A stretch of DNA of 64,000 nucleotides from Escherichia coli phage KS_S14. The notes under the pieces were generated by a model, which saw only the letters and a list, made by a program, of their open reading frames with translations, searched no databases and was not told where the DNA came from. Made by a program: the position numbers and the translations under genes. This document shows positions 8,171 to 59,648 of the stretch, piece after piece (position 1 is the first letter of the stretch; each line of letters begins with the position of its first letter). The stretch lies in the sequence record LC788706.1. One strand, 5' to 3'.

Positions 8171-11016
8171 AGAAAATACTAGATAGTGCTAGAAACTACT
8201 TAAAAAATAATAGCAGAATAAAAACTGCTAGTCTAATTTCCCTAGAATTACCTGGCTCTACTGGTACTAGTACTGCTTTTATTTATTTAACTGATTATTT
8301 TAGAGATGTACTATATAATGGTATTTTGTACCAGGCCGGTAAGGTTAAGTCCATTAGCACACATAAACAAAATAGAGATTTATCTATTGGCAGTCTATCT
8401 TTTACTATTACGGGTACAGCGCAGGATGAAGTACTGAAATTAGTGCAGAATGGTGTGTCCTTTTTAGATAGAATAGTAACAATCCACCAAGCAATTATTA
8501 CAGAGGATGGTTCTATTTTACCTGTAGACCCAGACACAAATGGCCCTTTATTATACTTTAGAGGGAGAATTACCGGTGGGGGTATTAAGGACAACATTAG
8601 TACTTCTGGGGTTGGAACCTCCACAATTACTTGGAATTGTTCTAACCAATTCTATGACTTTGATAGGGTTAACGGTAGATTTACTGATGATGCTTCTCAT
8701 AGAGGGCTTGAGGTTGTAGCAGGGCAATTAGTTCCATCTAACGGGGCTAAAAGACTTGAGTACCAAGAAGATTATGGGTTCTTTCATGCTAATAAAAGTA
8801 TCTCTATTTTAGCAAAATATCAGGTACAGGAAGAGAGATACAAGCTAAAGTCTAAGAAAAAGCTATTTGGCCTATCTAGAAGCTATAGTCTTAAAAAGTA
8901 TTATGAGACTGTTACTAAAGAAGTAGATATAGATTTTAACCTTGCTGCTAAGTATATACCAGTAGTTTATGGTGTACAGAAAATACCAGGAATACCTATT
9001 TTTGCGGATACGGAACTACACAATCCTAATATAGTTTATGTAGTATACGCCTTTGCTGAAGGGGAGATAGACGGTTTTCTTGACTTTTCCTTCGGGGATA
9101 ACCCTATGATTTGTATGGACTCTAATGATAGCTCTGCTAGAACCTGTTTCGGTGTTAAAAAAGTAGCAGGAGACACCATGCAAAGAATAGCATCAGGAAT
9201 ATCTTCTAGTAGTCCTTCTGTGCATGGTCAGGAATATAAGTATAATGATGGTAATGGTGATATAAGGATTTGGACTTATCATGGAAAAGCTGATCAAACG
9301 GCTTCTGAAGTATTAGTAGACATAGCGAAAGAACGTGGGTTCTACCTTCAGAATATGAATGGCAATGGACCGGAGTACTGGGATGCTAGGTATAAACTAC
9401 TAGATACTGCATACGCAGTGGTGCGCTTCACTATTAATGAAAATAGGACTGAGATTCCTGAAGTTAGTGCTGAAATTCAAGGTAAAAAAGTAAAAGTCTA
9501 TCATTCTGATGGTAGAGTAACTGCTAATAGTACTAGTTTAAATGGTATTTGGCAAACACTTGACTACTTAACCTCCGATAGATACGGTGCTAATATTACC
9601 ATTGATCAGTTCCCTCTTCAGCAATTAATACAGGAAGCAGCTATTTTAGATATTATAGATGAATCCTATCAGGTATCTTGGCAGCCATATTGGAGATACG
9701 TTGGGTGGACTGATCCACTAGCAGAAAATAGACAAATAGTACAAATGAATACTATTCTGGATACATCTGAATCAGTATTTAAAAATGTGCAAGGTTTATT
9801 AGAGTCCTACGGTGGGGCTATTAACAACTTATCTGGCCAGTACAGGATTACTGTAGAAAAATACTCTAATACTCCATTAGAGATTAATTTTCTAGATACT
9901 TACGGTGATTTGGAGCTATCAGATACTACTGGTAGAAATAAATTCAACTCAGTTCAAGCATCTATCGTAGATCCAGCCCTTAGCTGGAAAACTAATTCCA
10001 TTACATTCTATAACTCCAAGTATAAGGAACAGGACAAGAACCTAGACAAAAAATTACAATTATCTTTTGCAAATATAACTAACTACTATACTGCTAGAAG
10101 TTTTGCAGACAGAGAACTTAAGAAATCTAGGTATTCTAGAACCCTCTCATTTTCTTTACCATATCAATTCATTGGTATTGAGCCTAATGATGCTATTGCA
10201 TTTACATACGACCGTTACGGATGGGATAAGAAGTACTTTTTAGTAGATGAAGTCGAAAACTCTAGGGAAGGAAAGATAAATGTTACTCTACAGGAGTATG
10301 GAAAAGATGTATTCATCAACTCTGATCAAGTAGATAATAGTGGTAATGATATACCAGATATTAGTAACAACGTTCTTCCTCCTAGAGATTTTAAGTATAC
10401 TCCTACACCCGGTGGCTTAGTTGGTTCTATAGGTAAAAATGGTGAGTTATCCTGGCTTCCGAGTCTAACCAATAATGTAGTTTATTACTCTATTGTGCAC
10501 TCAGGCCATGCCGAACCTTACATAGTACAACAGTTAGAGACCAATCCTAACGAACGTATGATCCAAGAAATAATTGGGGAACCAGCAGGTCTGGCTATAT
10601 TTGAGATAAGAGCAGTAGATATTAATGGTAGAAGAAGTTCCCCGGTGACTCTGTCTATAGAACTTAACTCTGCTAAAAACCTTAGTGTAGTATCTAATTT
10701 TAGGGTAACTAATACTGCTTCTGGAGATGTAACTGAGTTTGTTGGCCCAGATGTAAAACTAGCTTGGGATAGAATACCTGAAGAAGATATAATAGAGAGT
10801 ATATTTTATACACTTGAAATACACGATTCGCAAAATAGGATGTTAAGAAGTGTACGTATTGAAAATCAGTATACTTATGACTATTTATTAACATATAATA
10901 AGGCAGACTTTGCTCTCCAGAACAGCGGTGCTCTAGGTATAAATAGAAAATTGTATTTTCGTATTAGGGCTGAAGGGGATGATGGAGAACAGTCTGTGGA
11001 GTGGGCATCCATTTAA
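8167..11016 (+). CDS. baseplate hub protein (T5 pb3-like)
   Basis: 949-aa ORF following Dit homologue, start overlaps upstream stop; size and synteny. Confidence 0.6.
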   Translation: MKKILDSARNYLKNNSRIKTASLISLELPGSTGTSTAFIYLTDYFRDVLYNGILYQAGKVKSISTHKQNRDLSIGSLSFTITGTAQDEVLKLVQNGVSFLDRIVTIHQAIITEDGSILPVDPDTNGPLLYFRGRITGGGIKDNISTSGVGTSTITWNCSNQFYDFDRVNGRFTDDASHRGLEVVAGQLVPSNGAKRLEYQEDYGFFHANKSISILAKYQVQEERYKLKSKKKLFGLSRSYSLKKYYETVTKEVDIDFNLAAKYIPVVYGVQKIPGIPIFADTELHNPNIVYVVYAFAEGEIDGFLDFSFGDNPMICMDSNDSSARTCFGVKKVAGDTMQRIASGISSSSPSVHGQEYKYNDGNGDIRIWTYHGKADQTASEVLVDIAKERGFYLQNMNGNGPEYWDARYKLLDTAYAVVRFTINENRTEIPEVSAEIQGKKVKVYHSDGRVTANSTSLNGIWQTLDYLTSDRYGANITIDQFPLQQLIQEAAILDIIDESYQVSWQPYWRYVGWTDPLAENRQIVQMNTILDTSESVFKNVQGLLESYGGAINNLSGQYRITVEKYSNTPLEINFLDTYGDLELSDTTGRNKFNSVQASIVDPALSWKTNSITFYNSKYKEQDKNLDKKLQLSFANITNYYTARSFADRELKKSRYSRTLSFSLPYQFIGIEPNDAIAFTYDRYGWDKKYFLVDEVENSREGKINVTLQEYGKDVFINSDQVDNSGNDIPDISNNVLPPRDFKYTPTPGGLVGSIGKNGELSWLPSLTNNVVYYSIVHSGHAEPYIVQQLETNPNERMIQEIIGEPAGLAIFEIRAVDINGRRSSPVTLSIELNSAKNLSVVSNFRVTNTASGDVTEFVGPDVKLAWDRIPEEDIIESIFYTLEIHDSQNRMLRSVRIENQYTYDYLLTYNKADFALQNSGALGINRKLYFRIRAEGDDGEQSVEWASI

Positions 11017-49876: not shown

Positions 49877-50715
49877 TGCAACAATACTTAAAAATTTTGA
49901 CAGATGTAATTTTACTAGGTGAACCCCGTAATGACCGTACAGGAACAGGCACAGTTTCAATTTTTGATTCCTATGCTAAGTTTGACCTACGTGAAGGGTT
50001 CCCGGCTGTAACTACTAAACGCCTGGCCTGGAAATCAGTAGTAGGAGAACTTTTATGGTTCTTGTCTGGTTCCACAAATCTTCATGATCTACGTGTATTC
50101 ACATTTGGGCGTGACGAAGGACAGTGGACCATCTGGACTCCAAATTATGAAGACCAAGCCATAAGTATGGGGTATGATAAGGGTAATCTAGGACCAGTAT
50201 ATGGTAAACAGTGGCGTAACTTTGGTGGGCGAGATCAGATTCTAGAACTTATTGAAGGACTCAAGAATAATCCTCATGGCCGCAGACATCTAGTTTCTGC
50301 GTGGAACGTAGCTGAACTTGATAAAATGGCATTACCACCTTGTCACTACGGCTTCCAGTGTTATGTAAGTAACGATGGATACCTAGATCTTAAATGGACA
50401 CAACGCTCTGTGGATTGTTTCCTCGGTTTACCTTTCAATATTGCTAGTTATGCTTTATTAACGCATATATTAGCAAAACTGACAGGATTAAAACCTCGTT
50501 ATCTTATCTTTAGTGGCGGTGATACTCATATCTATAATGACCACATGGAACAGGTAGAAGAACAGGTAAAACGCAAGCCACGCCCTCTGCCAACTCTAGT
50601 AATGCCAGAGTTTGTAGATCTTTACGATTTATTAGAAAATAATACAGCAGCTTGGTCATTCCATTTAGAGGGGTACGATCCTCATCCAGCTCTTAAAGCT
50701 AAAATGTCCTCTTAA
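49876..50715 (+). CDS. thyA: thymidylate synthase
   Basis: 279 aa; active-site PPCHYGFQCYV. Confidence 0.9.
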   Translation: MQQYLKILTDVILLGEPRNDRTGTGTVSIFDSYAKFDLREGFPAVTTKRLAWKSVVGELLWFLSGSTNLHDLRVFTFGRDEGQWTIWTPNYEDQAISMGYDKGNLGPVYGKQWRNFGGRDQILELIEGLKNNPHGRRHLVSAWNVAELDKMALPPCHYGFQCYVSNDGYLDLKWTQRSVDCFLGLPFNIASYALLTHILAKLTGLKPRYLIFSGGDTHIYNDHMEQVEEQVKRKPRPLPTLVMPEFVDLYDLLENNTAAWSFHLEGYDPHPALKAKMSS

Positions 50716-50719
50716 CTTA

Positions 50720-50745
50720 AATAGCCCTTCGGGGCTATTATATTT
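50720..50745 (+). terminator. hairpin after thyA
   Basis: ATAGCCC-TTCG-GGGCTAT, weak U-tract. Confidence 0.5.
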
Positions 50746-50790
50746 AAAATTTCATTTGCTTATTTAGTGAAATTTTAAATATAATATACT
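50745..50790 (+). promoter_or_regulatory. T5-type early promoter
   Basis: TTGCTT (50756-61), 18 bp, TATAAT (50780-85), AT-rich UP region. Confidence 0.6.
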
Positions 50791-55206: not shown

Positions 55207-55845
55207 ATGACTACTCGTATTTCTAAAACTCGCGCTCTGGCAACTATCAAATCTCTGGAAGCTAAAATTCGTAAAGCTACTGAACAACAGCTCCTGATTG
55301 CTGTTGGTGAAGGTAAGGATAAAAACCAGGTTGTAGTTGGCGCTGCAATCGAAGTAGATGCCCTGTCTACTCGTATTAAGACTGATTTCCAATCTCTGCT
55401 GGATATGATGTCTAAGCGTGATAGTATCAAATCTGCTCTGATTAAGAGCAATGCAGAAACAATAGTTGAGATCGGTTCTCGTAAAATGACTGTTGCGGAA
55501 GCAATTGAAGCTAAGCGTTCTATGGAACTTAAAGCCCAACTGCTGGCTAACATGCGTAAGCAGTTCCATGCCGCTACGGTTAAGTTTAATACGCAGAAAG
55601 CACAGTTTGATGCTAAATATGAGCGTTTGCAGGATAGCATGGCTACCCGCGATAAGAAAACTTCCGAAGATGAAGTTAAAATGCAGCTCAACCTGTTGGA
55701 ACTCAAGAATACTCCATTCTTGATTGATCCGCTGGAGCTGGAGAAGCTGATTAAACAGCATGACGAGGAATACCAGGACTTTGCAACAAATGTTGACTTT
55801 GTTCTGTCCGAGTCTAACGCCTCTACTTTCATTGAAGTAGAGTAA
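55207..55845 (+). CDS. hypothetical protein
   Basis: 212-aa ORF, RBS aaggaag. Confidence 0.5.
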   Translation: MTTRISKTRALATIKSLEAKIRKATEQQLLIAVGEGKDKNQVVVGAAIEVDALSTRIKTDFQSLLDMMSKRDSIKSALIKSNAETIVEIGSRKMTVAEAIEAKRSMELKAQLLANMRKQFHAATVKFNTQKAQFDAKYERLQDSMATRDKKTSEDEVKMQLNLLELKNTPFLIDPLELEKLIKQHDEEYQDFATNVDFVLSESNASTFIEVE

Positions 55846-56219
55846 TAATTTAAAAGCTAGTAAATCGGTAGACGAAAGCCCAAGCATCTTACCTCGCAGC
55901 AGCGGTTGAAATACGAGGTTAAATAAGACCGCTGACCATACTATAAAGTATAATCTATTGGAGATTATGTTTATTACATCAGACATTTAATCTGACACGT
56001 AAAAACAAAGAGTCGTTGATATTACCGACACAACTTCAAAGATCAACATTTAAGTATGAAAGCTGAAAAGTTTAAAGAACTCAAACTTCTAAACTTCTAA
56101 AGCTAAAAGATGCAAAGTATTCGTTGATGATTCAAATCCTAGATCAAAGGTACATGGCTCGTAAGATATGGCCTGTGGCGCCTCTAGGCTGTTTATCGGT
56201 TTACTAGTTTCACAATTTA

Positions 56220-56262
56220 AAAATGTATTTGCTAATTTATTAAGTTATCTGTATAATATATT
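56220..56262 (+). promoter_or_regulatory. T5-type early promoter
   Basis: TTGCTA (56229-34), 17 bp, TATAAT (56252-57). Confidence 0.65.
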
Positions 56263-56287
56263 TTTAAATTGATGAAACGAGGCTATT

Positions 56288-56605
56288 ATGACTTTTCATA
56301 TTTTGATTGATGATGTGCGTAATCTTCACGGAATGGACATTATCATTCGAACCCCAGAAGCCGCTGTAGAGTTTCTGAATAAAACTGATACTACAGGCCA
56401 TTTCGTTTATATGGATAATGACTTGGCTGTAGATGGTATGGAAGGTTATCAAATTCTTCGTTTACTCTTAGAATTTGGGCAGAGACCAAAGAAAGTGGTA
56501 CTAGTAACCTCGAACCCAGTAGCTAAGCAAAATATGCGTAATGATTTGCTTGACTTAGGGTATAAAGAAAATCCCAATCGTGTTGAGTATGATTGGCAGG
56601 AGTAA
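56288..56605 (+). CDS. hypothetical protein
   Basis: 105-aa ORF after T5-type promoter. Confidence 0.4.
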   Translation: MTFHILIDDVRNLHGMDIIIRTPEAAVEFLNKTDTTGHFVYMDNDLAVDGMEGYQILRLLLEFGQRPKKVVLVTSNPVAKQNMRNDLLDLGYKENPNRVEYDWQE

Positions 56606-56610
56606 AAAGA

Positions 56611-57060
56611 ATGAAGGCAGCTTTGCTTTTAGTAGCTGCCCTTACCTTCAGCTTTAGTAGTCAGGCATCGCACGATGCAAAAGAAATAGATTGCATTGCT
56701 AAAAATATCTATTTCGAGAGTCGTGGTGAGGGCATAAAGGGAATGACGGCGATTGCACATGTTACTAAAAACCGTGTAAACTCTGGTAAATTCCCAGATT
56801 CCTACTGTAAAGTAGTATATCAGTCTAACCAGTTCTCTTGGGTATCTAAGAGACCAAAAGTTGATAAAACCGATGAGGCTTGGCAAACTGCTAAGAATTT
56901 AGCTAGAGTGATATACTACGTTGATTTACCACAAGATCCTACACATGGAGCACTATACTTCCATAGTGGTAAAGATAAACCTTACTGGACAAAGAAATTT
57001 AAGAAAACAACTAAGATTAAGGGACATACGTTTTATAAACCTGTTGTCACTAAAACTTAA
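56611..57060 (+). CDS. SleB/CwlJ-type cell wall hydrolase with N-terminal signal peptide
   Basis: MKAALLLVAALTFSFSSQA signal-like N-terminus; IYFESRGEG...AIAHVTKNRV...DPTHGALYFH...GHTFY match Hydrolase_2 pattern. Confidence 0.6.
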   Translation: MKAALLLVAALTFSFSSQASHDAKEIDCIAKNIYFESRGEGIKGMTAIAHVTKNRVNSGKFPDSYCKVVYQSNQFSWVSKRPKVDKTDEAWQTAKNLARVIYYVDLPQDPTHGALYFHSGKDKPYWTKKFKKTTKIKGHTFYKPVVTKT

Positions 57061-57102
57061 AAATTTACTTGCTTAAATACTTAAATTTCTGTATAATACT
57101 TC
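57060..57102 (+). promoter_or_regulatory. T5-type early promoter
   Basis: TTGCTT (57069-74), 17 bp, TATAAT (57092-97). Confidence 0.65.
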
Positions 57103-57128
57103 CATAAACTAATGAGAGGAAGCGAAAT

Positions 57129-57299
57129 ATGAAATCAGTTGTAATTATTGGTGTTAACACTCGCGGTATTCGTACTACGAAAACTGTTAAAACATCTAAC
57201 GTGGCTGAAATTACTACTAACCCTAAAAAGTTTGATTTCGCCAAAGTCTCAGCAGTTATGACAGAACAATCTTTTAACCAAGCGTTAGGAATGAAATAA
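57129..57299 (+). CDS. hypothetical small protein
   Basis: 56-aa ORF below ORF-track cutoff, RBS gagagga. Confidence 0.3.
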   Translation: MKSVVIIGVNTRGIRTTKTVKTSNVAEITTNPKKFDFAKVSAVMTEQSFNQALGMK

Positions 57300-57742
57300 T
57301 GGAAGAGAATATTTTAGATGTTTTGCGTAGAGCTTTGCAGGATTCTAAGTTTAATGGTTCTGATAAAGAAGTCGCTAAAAGCTATCAGACCATAATCGGG
57401 GATCTTCAGCGTATTAATAAAGATTTCATCACTTCTGAACAATTTGTGTCTTATCTCAAAGCTCAACTAAAAAGCATTAACCAGATGAAAGCTAAACTTC
57501 ATGGTCAAGATCTTGATAGTTATAGCTTGCAGTCCGCTCAGTATGAATACATTCTAAATAAGTGGTTGCAGGAGTATCTGCCTCCTCAGTTATCTGATAC
57601 TGAGATTCGTAAATACTTTGCAGAATTAGTTAAGCTAAACCCTGGAATTACAAAAGGTATGCTAATGAAAGCGATTAAGGAAGAATTTCCTGGGCGTTAT
57701 GATGGTGGTACTGCTGCTCAGATTGCTGGCGAATTTAATTAA
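57299..57742 (+). CDS. GatB/YqeY-domain protein
   Basis: 147 aa; C-terminal KGMLMKAIKEEFPGRYDGGTAAQIAGEF typical of YqeY family. Confidence 0.55.
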   Translation: MEENILDVLRRALQDSKFNGSDKEVAKSYQTIIGDLQRINKDFITSEQFVSYLKAQLKSINQMKAKLHGQDLDSYSLQSAQYEYILNKWLQEYLPPQLSDTEIRKYFAELVKLNPGITKGMLMKAIKEEFPGRYDGGTAAQIAGEFN

Positions 57743-57785
57743 AAATTTATTTGCTAAATGCTTATAAATTCTGTATAATATATTC
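57740..57785 (+). promoter_or_regulatory. T5-type early promoter driving tRNA/structured-RNA region
   Basis: AAAAATTTATTTGCTA with TTGCTA (57751-56), 17 bp, TATAAT (57774-79). Confidence 0.65.
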
Positions 57786-58017
57786 ATAAATTAGAGAACA
57801 GCGAGCCGATTACGCTGAACTTGTCTTAATGTAAGATGCGTCAAGCACTAAGATTCGTTGAATAGAGTCGGTGGGTTAGTTGTAAAACTAGTACACAGGG
57901 GGCGGCAATCCCGGTTAGTGGCTAGAACGTGTAAAATGAGGCGTCTGAAACCTCTCCCCTAAACTCTTCTCTAATTTATAAATAGTGGGGTGTGGAAATC
58001 ACTTATGTAGTAACACT

Positions 58018-58089
58018 GCCGTCCTAGTATAATTGGTATTATCAAGCCGTAACTGGTGGAAGATGTAGGTTCGAATCCTACGGTCGGTA
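58018..58089 (+). tRNA. tRNA-like element, possibly degenerate tRNA
   Basis: Perfect T-arm GTAGG-TTCGAAT-CCTAC and acceptor pairing with one U-U mismatch, but no convincing anticodon stem and no encoded CCA. Confidence 0.3.
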
Positions 58090-58591
58090 AGAACTGGATA
58101 ACTGATGCTTTTAACGTAAAAGCTTCCGAGGTTAGTTGCGCACTGCCTAAACCACGCGGTAGTTGGTTCCAGACTAACCAACCAGTCTGCTGAATAGTTT
58201 TATTACGATTTAACTATGTCCAGGCTAAAGAAGAACTTTAGAAGGTATTCTAGGATAGTGAAGTTCTTTCTCCATATCGGAGTAGTTTTTCAAGCTATCC
58301 ACAAAGTGGGAAATGCTGACATGAGAGATGTCACTAATGGTGCACAATAGCACAGGTAATTCGCGATAACTCCTGTTGAGTAGCAGCAAAAGGCGGGAAG
58401 TCATGACCCCAAGCCTAACCGAGTCCTCAATATACCGCAGGACATAACCACTAAGTCACCCTGACTTAAACTGGAAAATAATAGACGTTACTGTATTTTG
58501 TCTTGAAATACTTAATGAGCGAGACTTATGACTCTCCCGGTATCGTCTGTATTTTTAAGAGCTTTTATAAGAGTTCTTAAAAATGCCTAAA

Positions 58592-58700: not shown

Positions 58701-59648
58701 ATGTTTAATACTAAAAATATGAAAGAACTGACTTCTGAGCAGAAAGTAATTCGTACTATTAAACGTTGGGGTATTGGTGCTGTAGTTGGTTTAGCAGGCT
58801 TGATTCTAGCTTTTAATTCATATACTATTGTTTCTGATGGTACGGTTAAAACCCAAACATTCCTGGGTAAAGTAGATCCTAATCCAGTATTGCCTGGTTT
58901 CCACCTTGTAAACCCGTTTGCATCTTTCGATACTTTTAGTACAAAAGATATTGCTGTAAAATTATATAAACTTCAGGTTCCTAGCCAGGATAAGTTTAAA
59001 TCCACTGTTGACCTGACTGTTATGTTGCAGTTTGATGGTTCTAAGGCACCGATTAACCGTATTAACGCAGGTACTCAGGATCAGGCACTAGACAAGTATG
59101 TAACTGAAAAATTACTGTCTACTATTCGTGAGTTTGGTAAGTCTGTACCTAAAGCACAAGATTTATTTGATGCTAAAATTCAGGCTCAATTGCAAACTGC
59201 AATTCAACAGGAAGTTGAAGAGTATGCACGCCCATATGGTTACACAGTTAAGCAGGTGTTCCTTCAGGATATTACTTTGCCACCGGTAATCATGGAACAG
59301 GTACAGAATACCAAAGTTCGTGAAGAACAGGTTAATGCTGCGAAAGCTGAACTGGCTCGCGTTGAACAAGAAGCTCAGCAGAAAGTCAAACAAGCAGAAG
59401 CAGACCGTGAAGCTCGCAACAACCAAGCTATTGCCAATGAACGTGATGCAGATGCTAAACTGTACGCAGCTAAGAAAGAAGCTGAAGCTAACGCCGCATT
59501 GCAACGTACCATTACTCCTGAGATGATTCGCTGGAAGCAACTGGAAGTTGAAATGATTCGTGCTCAGAAATACCAAGGTGGTGTACCGCAGACTGTGGTT
59601 GGCACTGGCTACGATGGTCAAATGATTATGGATATGCGTAATAAATAA
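58701..59648 (+). CDS. SPFH / band-7 (prohibitin-like) membrane protein
   Basis: 315 aa; N-terminal TM helix (GIGAVVGLAGLILAF), SPFH-like core, Ala/Glu/Gln-rich coiled-coil. Confidence 0.65.
   Translation: MFNTKNMKELTSEQKVIRTIKRWGIGAVVGLAGLILAFNSYTIVSDGTVKTQTFLGKVDPNPVLPGFHLVNPFASFDTFSTKDIAVKLYKLQVPSQDKFKSTVDLTVMLQFDGSKAPINRINAGTQDQALDKYVTEKLLSTIREFGKSVPKAQDLFDAKIQAQLQTAIQQEVEEYARPYGYTVKQVFLQDITLPPVIMEQVQNTKVREEQVNAAKAELARVEQEAQQKVKQAEADREARNNQAIANERDADAKLYAAKKEAEANAALQRTITPEMIRWKQLEVEMIRAQKYQGGVPQTVVGTGYDGQMIMDMRNK

Follow-up and report, generated by a model that had tools for sequence, protein, structure and literature searches.

Bacillus SleB is a germination-specific lytic transglycosylase that carries an N-terminal peptidoglycan-binding domain, has YpeB as a partner and owes its catalytic activity to a domain of the Hydrolase_2 family. 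In E. coli, soluble lytic transglycosylases of the Slt70 type are periplasmic, work with a single catalytic Glu and form 1,6-anhydroMurNAc. Among phage enzymes, Lyz of P1 and R21 of phage 21 are SAR endolysins set free by membrane depolarisation, and Lys44 of the Oenococcus phage fOg44 is a Sec-exported endolysin with a cleaved signal peptide that acts independently of a holin and is restrained until the membrane is de-energised. Escherichia phage Mangalitsa (Chaseviridae) encodes gp080, a single-domain Hydrolase_2 protein annotated as "SAR endolysin" whose gene lies directly after the holin gene at the end of the late genes, and also a T5-Lys-like L-Ala-D-Glu peptidase, distant from the holin and among early genes; the Mangalitsa genome announcement makes no statement on lysis genes. 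In Gram-negative phages generally, a survey of lysins placed Hydrolase_2 among the dominant catalytic domains, found a predicted signal peptide in 27.9% of the lysins and described a high positive C-terminal charge in those with Hydrolase_2 (PMC8223927). For T5-like phages, a second hydrolase, of SleB type and encoded in the early region at a distance from the holin, was described for AKFV33 in 2012 (PMC3326045) and again for Salmonella phages in 2024, as an "endolysin far from holin" and with the remark that the enzyme on which the phages mainly rely is not known (PMC11180984). Older annotations give the T5 gene of this type, T5.083 (YP_006911.1; NC_005859 42290-42739), the name "cell wall hydrolase SleB"; in RefSeq, with an annotation derived from PHROG, it appears as "endolysin". 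The literature searched yielded no experiment on T5.083 or its orthologues (activity assay, localisation or deletion phenotype), and the supplements of the Bas33 RNA-seq and proteomics paper yielded no expression or protein data for the orthologue.

The window, by which we mean the whole 64-kb stretch of Escherichia coli phage KS_S14 DNA analysed here (LC788706.1), comes from a T5-like phage (Tequintavirus). Megablast against T5 placed it, in reversed orientation, on the part of the T5 genome that begins at about 35 kb, and the 4-kb region around the hydrolase gene displayed 98% identity to genomes of Tequintavirus, among them NBEco001 and SP15, with matches in 450 phage records. The hydrolase gene extends on the + strand from an ATG at 56611 to a stop codon at 57058-57060, exactly as the first-pass annotation had drawn it, and encodes a product of 149 aa (Table 1). 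T5.083 likewise has 149 aa, and the two proteins are 97.3% identical (4 substitutions); proteins from several sequenced T5-like phages were 100% identical to the product. Full-length matches were found in about 442 phage records, and the T5.083-type gene is present in essentially all T5-like phages. The dN/dS ratio was 0.07 against T5 and 0.07-0.25 across T5-like phages of Escherichia, Klebsiella, Erwinia and Enterobacter, and pN was far below pS against the much more distant orthologues of the Klebsiella, Erwinia and Enterobacter phages. The value of 0.07 against T5 and the low pN against distant orthologues show that the gene is real and under strong purifying selection. In T5, too, the gene lies between the T5.084 cREC gene on its upstream side and T5.082 and T5.081 on its downstream side, and its promoters are the same; there is no difference of substance between T5.083 and the gene described here. 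The upstream gene ends with a stop codon at 56603-56605, and a possible TTG start at 56593 (155 aa) was discarded because it is inside that gene, lacks a Shine-Dalgarno sequence and is at odds with all orthologues, which begin MK or MR at the ATG. For an antisense ORF (56629-56886) and an internal inverted repeat (56809-56827/56904-56922), nothing indicated more than chance.

Table 1. Features of the hydrolase locus (positions in the window) and N-termini of diverged orthologues.
Feature	Position	Strand	Basis
T5 early-type sigma-70 promoter, TTGCTA-17-TATAAT	56229..56257	+	Promoter scan; aligns with the annotated T5 promoter upstream of T5.084
T5.084 orthologue, 105 aa, cREC_REC domain	56288..56605	+	Pfam PF20274, E=3.8e-15
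Shine-Dalgarno AGGAG, 8 nt 5' of the ATG	56598..56602	+	Read in the sequence
CDS of Hydrolase_2 (SleB-like) muralytic enzyme, T5.083 orthologue (export and activity predicted)	56611..57060	+	ORF, Pfam, PHROG, PDB, predicted fold, 97.3% aa identity, dN/dS
Predicted Sec signal peptide MKAALLLVAALTFSFSSQA, codons 1-19, predicted signal peptidase I cut after Ala19	56611..56667	+	n/h/c architecture, -3/-1 rule
Predicted mature enzyme, codons 20-149, 130 aa, 15.0 kDa, pI 9.7	56668..57057	+	Predicted cleavage; computed physicochemical values
Predicted catalytic Glu36 codon	56716-56718	+	Conservation and alignment with the SleB groove
Next early promoter (equivalent of T5 P-D/E 33), end of the two-gene unit	57069..57097	+	Alignment with T5 P-D/E33; T5 annotation
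Torridgeon N-terminus, ...SFHAQA then K			
KEY N-terminus, ...SFNSFA then S			
KKP_3711 N-terminus, ...GTVEA then A			
Epseptimavirus group N-terminus, ...NSHA then T			

The product matched Pfam Hydrolase_2 (PF07486) along the whole profile (1-100 of 100 positions), with a score of 89.7 bits where 27 is the cut-off (E=2.2e-25), and PHROG 938, described as "endolysin" (E=5.5e-30), and its only sequence matches in the PDB were SleB 4f55 and 4fet. An AlphaFold2 model built on 41 homologues had a mean pLDDT of 92.4 and, when compared with the PDB by Foldseek, retrieved SleB catalytic domains only, with TMt values (TM-score normalised to the target) of 0.71-0.78 and rmsd of 2.3-2.9 A, the next hit having E > 1. 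The catalytic domains of Bacillus SleB (4F55 from B. cereus and 4FET from B. anthracis), at 28-30% identity, have a fold like that of the product and share with it the Pfam family and a conserved Glu/Arg/Tyr/His groove. In B. subtilis SleB this groove is made of E203, R222, Y278 and H301 (PMC13556211), which align with E36, R55, Y116 and H139 of the product. Conservation was assessed in the 149 cluster representatives that came closest to the product in an exhaustive phmmer scan: R55 was present in 149/149, E36 and H139 in 148/149 each, and position 116 was occupied by Y, F or H. The predicted catalytic machinery of the product is intact. [quoted passage not shown] On these two grounds we discarded SleB proper as an identification. 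Seven neighbouring genes in the window, when compared with Pfam and PHROGs, gave no YpeB-type match. The product has a Cys28/Cys66 pair that is absent from Bacillus SleB. As in the Hydrolase_2 lysins of the survey cited above, with their positive C-termini (PMC8223927), the product has a basic mature form and a Lys-rich C-terminal tail (residues 121-149, with 10 K+R against 1 D+E).

Since the host, an enterobacterium that forms no spore cortex, is devoid of muramic-delta-lactam, the substrate of the phage enzyme must be ordinary peptidoglycan. The characterised members of the family, SleB and CwlJ, need muramic-delta-lactam (PMC13556211), and this would fit an enzyme with little or no activity on the peptidoglycan of E. 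coli, or a gene carried along with no significant function in enterobacterial hosts; the outcome of a knock-down screen of T5 genes, described below, points the same way. Against this stand the dN/dS values, the invariance of the catalytic Glu and groove residues and the retention of the gene in about 440 phage genomes, and we consider either possibility very improbable.

The first-pass annotation regarded such an enzyme among early genes as unusual. This did not hold: the gene is the orthologue of a T5 gene with matches in about 442 phage records, its class is common and a second hydrolase of T5-like phages was already in print. The exhaustive phmmer scan retrieved 14,485 cluster representatives when the limit was E<=1e-3, and 5,389 when it was E<=1e-10, and tblastn located the domain in 1,278 phage records with Escherichia, Salmonella, Pseudomonas, Klebsiella, Aeromonas and others as hosts. 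Moreover, relatives of 35-45% identity were found on large contigs, one of them a 4.9-Mb chromosome, of Rhodospirillales, Burkholderiales, Thiodiazotropha, Skermanella and others. Exported Hydrolase_2 proteins are common in Gram-negative phages and in Proteobacteria and, since T5 carries an annotated orthologue and the class is common, the gene is not novel. Nor is its location odd within T5, because the holin/endolysin cassette is also in the early region.

The N-terminus of the product is composed of an n-region MK, an h-region AALLLVAALTFSF and a c-region SSQA followed by S, which places Ser at -3 and Ala at -1 of the predicted cut. This agrees with the earlier description of a cleavable-looking signal peptide followed by a SleB/CwlJ-type hydrolase domain, the second part of which is borne out by the Hydrolase_2 match. 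We screened the 74 non-overlapping ORFs of the window with a crude von Heijne-style filter, a heuristic that 3 of them passed; the other two were weak false positives, and the hydrolase ORF was the sole one of the 74 with a long uncharged run (19 aa) plus a strong hydrophobic core. The N-terminus contains neither a lipobox (the first Cys is residue 28, after E-I-D) nor a twin-arginine motif, and for these reasons lipoprotein and Tat export were discarded. In diverged orthologues the small-x-small site was kept despite sequence change, as AQA, SFA, VEA and SHA (Table 1), and a hydrophobic segment preceded the domain in 142/149 of the nearest cluster representatives. Signal-like N-termini were also present in all the homologues from the unrelated phages rV5, the phi92-like Phapecoctavirus nepoznato, Mangalitsa and Vibrio phage CHOED.

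A hydrophobic N-terminus of this kind might also be a SAR domain, which would keep the enzyme tethered and inactive in the inner membrane until its release upon depolarisation by the holin. The 19-residue uncharged run is Ala- and Ser-rich, the homologue in Mangalitsa is annotated as a SAR endolysin and adjoins the holin, and a metagenomic subgroup of homologues (MLTLKQLASIAILSTT...) has no obvious cleavage site; in addition, tethering would explain how an enzyme made early causes no premature lysis. However, the run has 0 Gly and a Leu-rich core, whereas the SAR domains of P1 Lyz and R21 are Gly/Ala-rich and of 24 residues, and the h-region, at about 13 residues, is shorter than expected of a transmembrane segment. 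The N-terminus resembles instead the cleaved signal peptides of E. coli DsbA, OmpA, PhoA and MalE, and this resemblance, together with its dissimilarity to the Gly-rich SAR domains, leads us to favour a cleaved Sec signal peptide. Furthermore, while the surrounding sequence changes, all T5-like orthologues have small residues at -3 and -1, a pattern suggestive of selection for cleavage. We thus regard a SAR domain as unlikely, and infer that the product is exported by Sec and cleaved after Ala19. Considering export and catalysis together, the product is very probably an exported, catalytically competent Hydrolase_2 enzyme.

The two cysteines are consistent with a periplasmic location. Cys28 is eight residues ahead of the predicted catalytic Glu36 and Cys66 is in the motif CKVVYQ; both were present in 147/149 of the nearest representatives and, in a set of 14 diverse sequences, 9 had both, 5 had neither and none had only one. 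On the basis of this co-variation, together with the export signal, Cys28 and Cys66 probably form a structural disulfide made by DsbA in the periplasm.

With respect to transcription, the gene was confirmed to be in the T5 early region, behind an early-type sigma-70 promoter, as the first-pass annotation had placed it. The putative promoter at the head of the locus drives a two-gene unit composed of the cREC-domain gene and the hydrolase. Just past the hydrolase stop codon, positions 57054-57123 are a near-copy (70-nt direct repeat) of the upstream promoter element, and both promoters belong to a 70-nt promoter repeat family. The genes that follow 3' of the hydrolase are a DUF7616 gene, a YqeY-like gene, a region matching the T5 stable "RNAX", a tRNA-Arg and a gene for an SPFH membrane protein. 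Erwinia phage KEY and Enterobacter phage KKP_3711 show the same order, and synteny is conserved across Markadamsvirinae. A functional coupling of the hydrolase with the upstream cREC gene was considered and found no support: in Klebsiella phage Torridgeon the hydrolase comes directly after the exonuclease with no cREC gene between them, which shows that the pairing is not obligatory, and in KKP_3711 an extra ORF intervenes between the two genes. The canonical T5 lysis cassette consists of the holin T5.041, the endolysin Lys T5.040 (Peptidase_M15) and the spanins T5.044/045, and its holin and endolysin genes are likewise early-region genes preceded by a sigma-70-type promoter. Its distance to the hydrolase gene is about 22 kb in T5 and about 19 kb in NBEco001, and tblastn with T5 Lys, holin and spanins gave no match in the 64-kb window.

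Concerning function, it had been proposed that the protein could be an alternative endolysin or a periplasmic remodelling enzyme, and both are live hypotheses. On balance we lean slightly towards the T5.083-type protein being an exported accessory muralytic enzyme and a lysis partner of Lys. Host RNA polymerase would transcribe the hydrolase from the early sigma-70 promoter as gene two of the two-gene unit, and the precursor would be exported by Sec and most likely cut by signal peptidase I after Ser-Gln-Ala19. The resulting 15-kDa basic protein would adopt its SleB-like Hydrolase_2 fold in the periplasm, probably with the Cys28-Cys66 disulfide in place. By homology it would be a lytic transglycosylase in which Glu36, as single acid/base, cuts the MurNAc-GlcNAc bond of ordinary, non-spore-cortex peptidoglycan. 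This predicted chemistry, together with the predicted location, is alike to that of Slt70, although Slt70 belongs to SLT/GH23, has no sequence-level kinship with Hydrolase_2 and is a housekeeping enzyme of the host rather than a phage-encoded one. With its export independent of the holin, the hydrolase would already be in place in the periplasm as a second lysis enzyme and, at lysis, it would cut the glycan strands and the holin-released Lys, a cytoplasmic L-Ala-D-Glu peptidase, would cut the peptide stems. Because such an enzyme is made early, its activity must be low or held back until membrane de-energisation, and we speculate, by analogy with SAR endolysins and with secreted ones such as Lys44, that restraint of this kind may operate. 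Lys44 differs in that it is of another catalytic family, has a Gram-positive host and is the only endolysin of its phage, whereas here the exported protein would be a second enzyme beside a holin-dependent endolysin. Against a part in lysis, a soluble transglycosylase that is active and exported early on would be expected to put the cell at risk of lysing too soon, and the 22 kb between holin and hydrolase come with no obvious co-regulation.

The nearest functional data come from a transcriptome-wide CRISPRi-ART knock-down screen of T5, in which T5.083 was scored "Not Fit" (5 guides, mean fitness -3.97), holin Fit and lys Not Fit (PMC11879866 supplement). The sensitivity of this screen in T5 is low, as D10 and D13 (replication, annotated known) and the virion gene N4 were also Not Fit (PMC11879866 supplement). 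Taken at the value of one low-sensitivity screen, T5.083 would be dispensable in laboratory conditions. That lys and T5.083 were both Not Fit is compatible with redundancy of two wall-degrading enzymes, an agreement that is only suggestive and does not amount to proof, because the screen misses D10, D13 and N4.

An enzyme made early and exported could instead act during the latent period, altering or thinning the host peptidoglycan with no part in lysis. Superinfecting phages might thereby be hindered, envelope properties changed or muropeptide turnover products supplied. The early promoter and the distance of 22 kb from the holin are in keeping with such remodelling, as are the gene for the SPFH membrane protein 1.6 kb away, the position of the rV5 homologue, which adjoins rIIA, and the dispensability of the gene for plaque formation that the Not Fit score of the low-sensitivity screen suggests. 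T5 also exports other early envelope proteins (e.g. the Llp lipoprotein, annotated "super infection exclusion"), and the chromosomal homologues that are widespread in Proteobacteria cannot serve in phage lysis, except where a prophage carries them. On the other hand, the T5 holin/lys cassette is early too, so that an early position says little, and we know of no specific T5 process that needs peptidoglycan remodelling. Furthermore, lysis accords better with the place of the Mangalitsa homologue beside the holin and with the repeated association, in several phage families, with another lysin; in other large coliphages, Hydrolase_2 is paired with a GH24 lysozyme or a chitinase-like lysin. We consider early remodelling possible in T5-like phages but improbable. 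Its broader version, in which the recurrent second hydrolase of T5-like, rV5-like and phi92-like coliphages would serve an early envelope takeover by peptidoglycan remodelling and not as a back-up endolysin, is distinctly doubtful; early remodelling, if true, would represent an unrecognised early envelope-takeover function of large virulent coliphages.

Some phages carry muralytic domains in their virions, and the protein could in principle be a virion-associated lysin that pierces the wall at DNA injection. Yet a Sec signal peptide would divert it from virion assembly in the cytoplasm, its gene is in the early region and not in the structural module, and mass spectrometry of AKFV33 virions, covering four gel bands, identified capsid, tail, fibre and pb2 proteins only. 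We give this explanation hardly any credence.

The comparison with Mangalitsa, whose family is unrelated to that of T5, also bears on accessory lysis. As in the phage studied here, gp080 has a single Hydrolase_2 domain, an N-terminal hydrophobic export segment and the Cys pair; it is about 35% identical to the product and differs from it in a linker of about 45 residues between signal and domain. When Mangalitsa and T5 are compared, the same enzyme pair is found with positions swapped, and this swap in Chaseviridae hints at a general design. The evidence inclines us, by a little over an even chance at most, to infer accessory lysis as the role of the hydrolase, with transglycosylase chemistry predicted from its relationship to SleB. 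If it shares the work with Lys, T5-like phages would have a two-enzyme lysis, with a Sec-delivered glycan cutter and a holin-delivered peptide cutter, and this could help to explain why the knock-down of lys was cost-free in one screen. The general picture of phage lysis is unchanged, exported Hydrolase_2 lysins being a known and common class; a conserved second muralytic enzyme matters modestly in that T5 is a model phage. It is also of relevance to enzybiotic mining, as databases call both genes "endolysin".

Orthologues of T5.083, among them the predicted secreted Hydrolase_2 protein of KS_S14, bear the RefSeq label 'endolysin', which is inherited from PHROGs and has no experimental origin. 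The same pair of wall enzymes was found in Escherichia phage Mangalitsa, which belongs to an unrelated phage family and, like T5, combines a signal-bearing Hydrolase_2 protein with an L-Ala-D-Glu peptidase resembling T5 Lys; unlike in T5, however, the two enzymes have exchanged positions relative to the holin. In the published CRISPRi-ART knock-down screen of T5, the holin (T5.041) was scored 'Fit' and the canonical endolysin lys (T5.040) 'Not Fit' (PMC11879866 supplement); both genes lie outside the window. The latter score could reflect redundancy with T5.083, or merely a low sensitivity of the screen.

The small transcription units in this region are flanked by three copies of the T5 early-promoter element (AAxTTAAAAATxTAxTTGCT...CTGTATAAT, followed by a conserved downstream part that reaches as far as the Shine-Dalgarno sequence), two of which were returned by the repeat search as a direct-repeat family. 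In the gene upstream of the hydrolase and co-transcribed with it, the T5.084 orthologue, Pfam recognises a cREC_REC domain ('cyclic-phosphate processing receiver', E=3.8e-15); the same gene also matches a PHROG family labelled 'unknown function'. Its place on the border of the tRNA region, alongside a YqeY/GatB-like protein, hints at a role in RNA or tRNA repair or modification. The YqeY-like protein itself scored 25.4 bits, narrowly under the Pfam threshold of 27, and the 'tRNA amidotransferase' label that both PHROG and RefSeq give it looks over-specific.

Features of the region and of the Mangalitsa wall-enzyme pair
Feature	Position	Strand	Basis or remark
Early-promoter element (~70 nt), copy 1	56214-56283	+	repeat
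T5.084 orthologue, 105 aa	56288-56605	+	PF20274, PHROG 1479
Inverted repeat, 19 nt	56809-56827 / 56904-56922		89% complementary, 76 nt between arms; within hydrolase coding sequence
Early-promoter element (~70 nt), copy 2	57054-57123	+	repeat
DUF7616 protein, 56 aa	57129-57299	+	E=4.7e-33
YqeY-like protein, next after DUF7616 gene	57299-57742	+	Pfam score slightly sub-threshold
Early-promoter element (~70 nt), copy 3	about 57740-57800	+	early promoter at 57751-57779
tRNA-model match, 35.5 bits	58018-58089	+	Rfam, above gathering threshold
Gln-rich ORF, 138 aa	59973-60389	-	composition
tRNA-model match, 40.3 bits	62298-62372	+	Rfam, above gathering threshold
L006 and L090, Mangalitsa (MN045229.1)	50226-50780 and 8917-9315		wall-enzyme pair

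The third promoter copy (57751-57779) marks the start of a stretch, ~57780-58590, that is the counterpart of the 719-nt T5 'RNAX, stable RNA with unknown functions'. The first of the two Rfam tRNA-model matches falls inside it; despite these matches, ARAGORN called no tRNA at either site.

Two further propagated labels look wrong, namely 'tail fiber protein' (PHROG 1491) for a 212-aa early-region protein at 55207-55845 (+), which had no Pfam match, and 'lipoprotein' (PHROG 200) for an SPFH/Band 7 membrane protein at 58701-59648 (+). The inverted repeat within the hydrolase gene showed nothing pointing beyond chance. The 138-aa ORF is extremely rich in Gln (e.g. QQLQQRLAEAQQMQQQLQQ and QMPQQMQQQVPQQQAQQQTQQPQ) and lies within a short block of opposite orientation, the counterpart of T5.077-T5.079.
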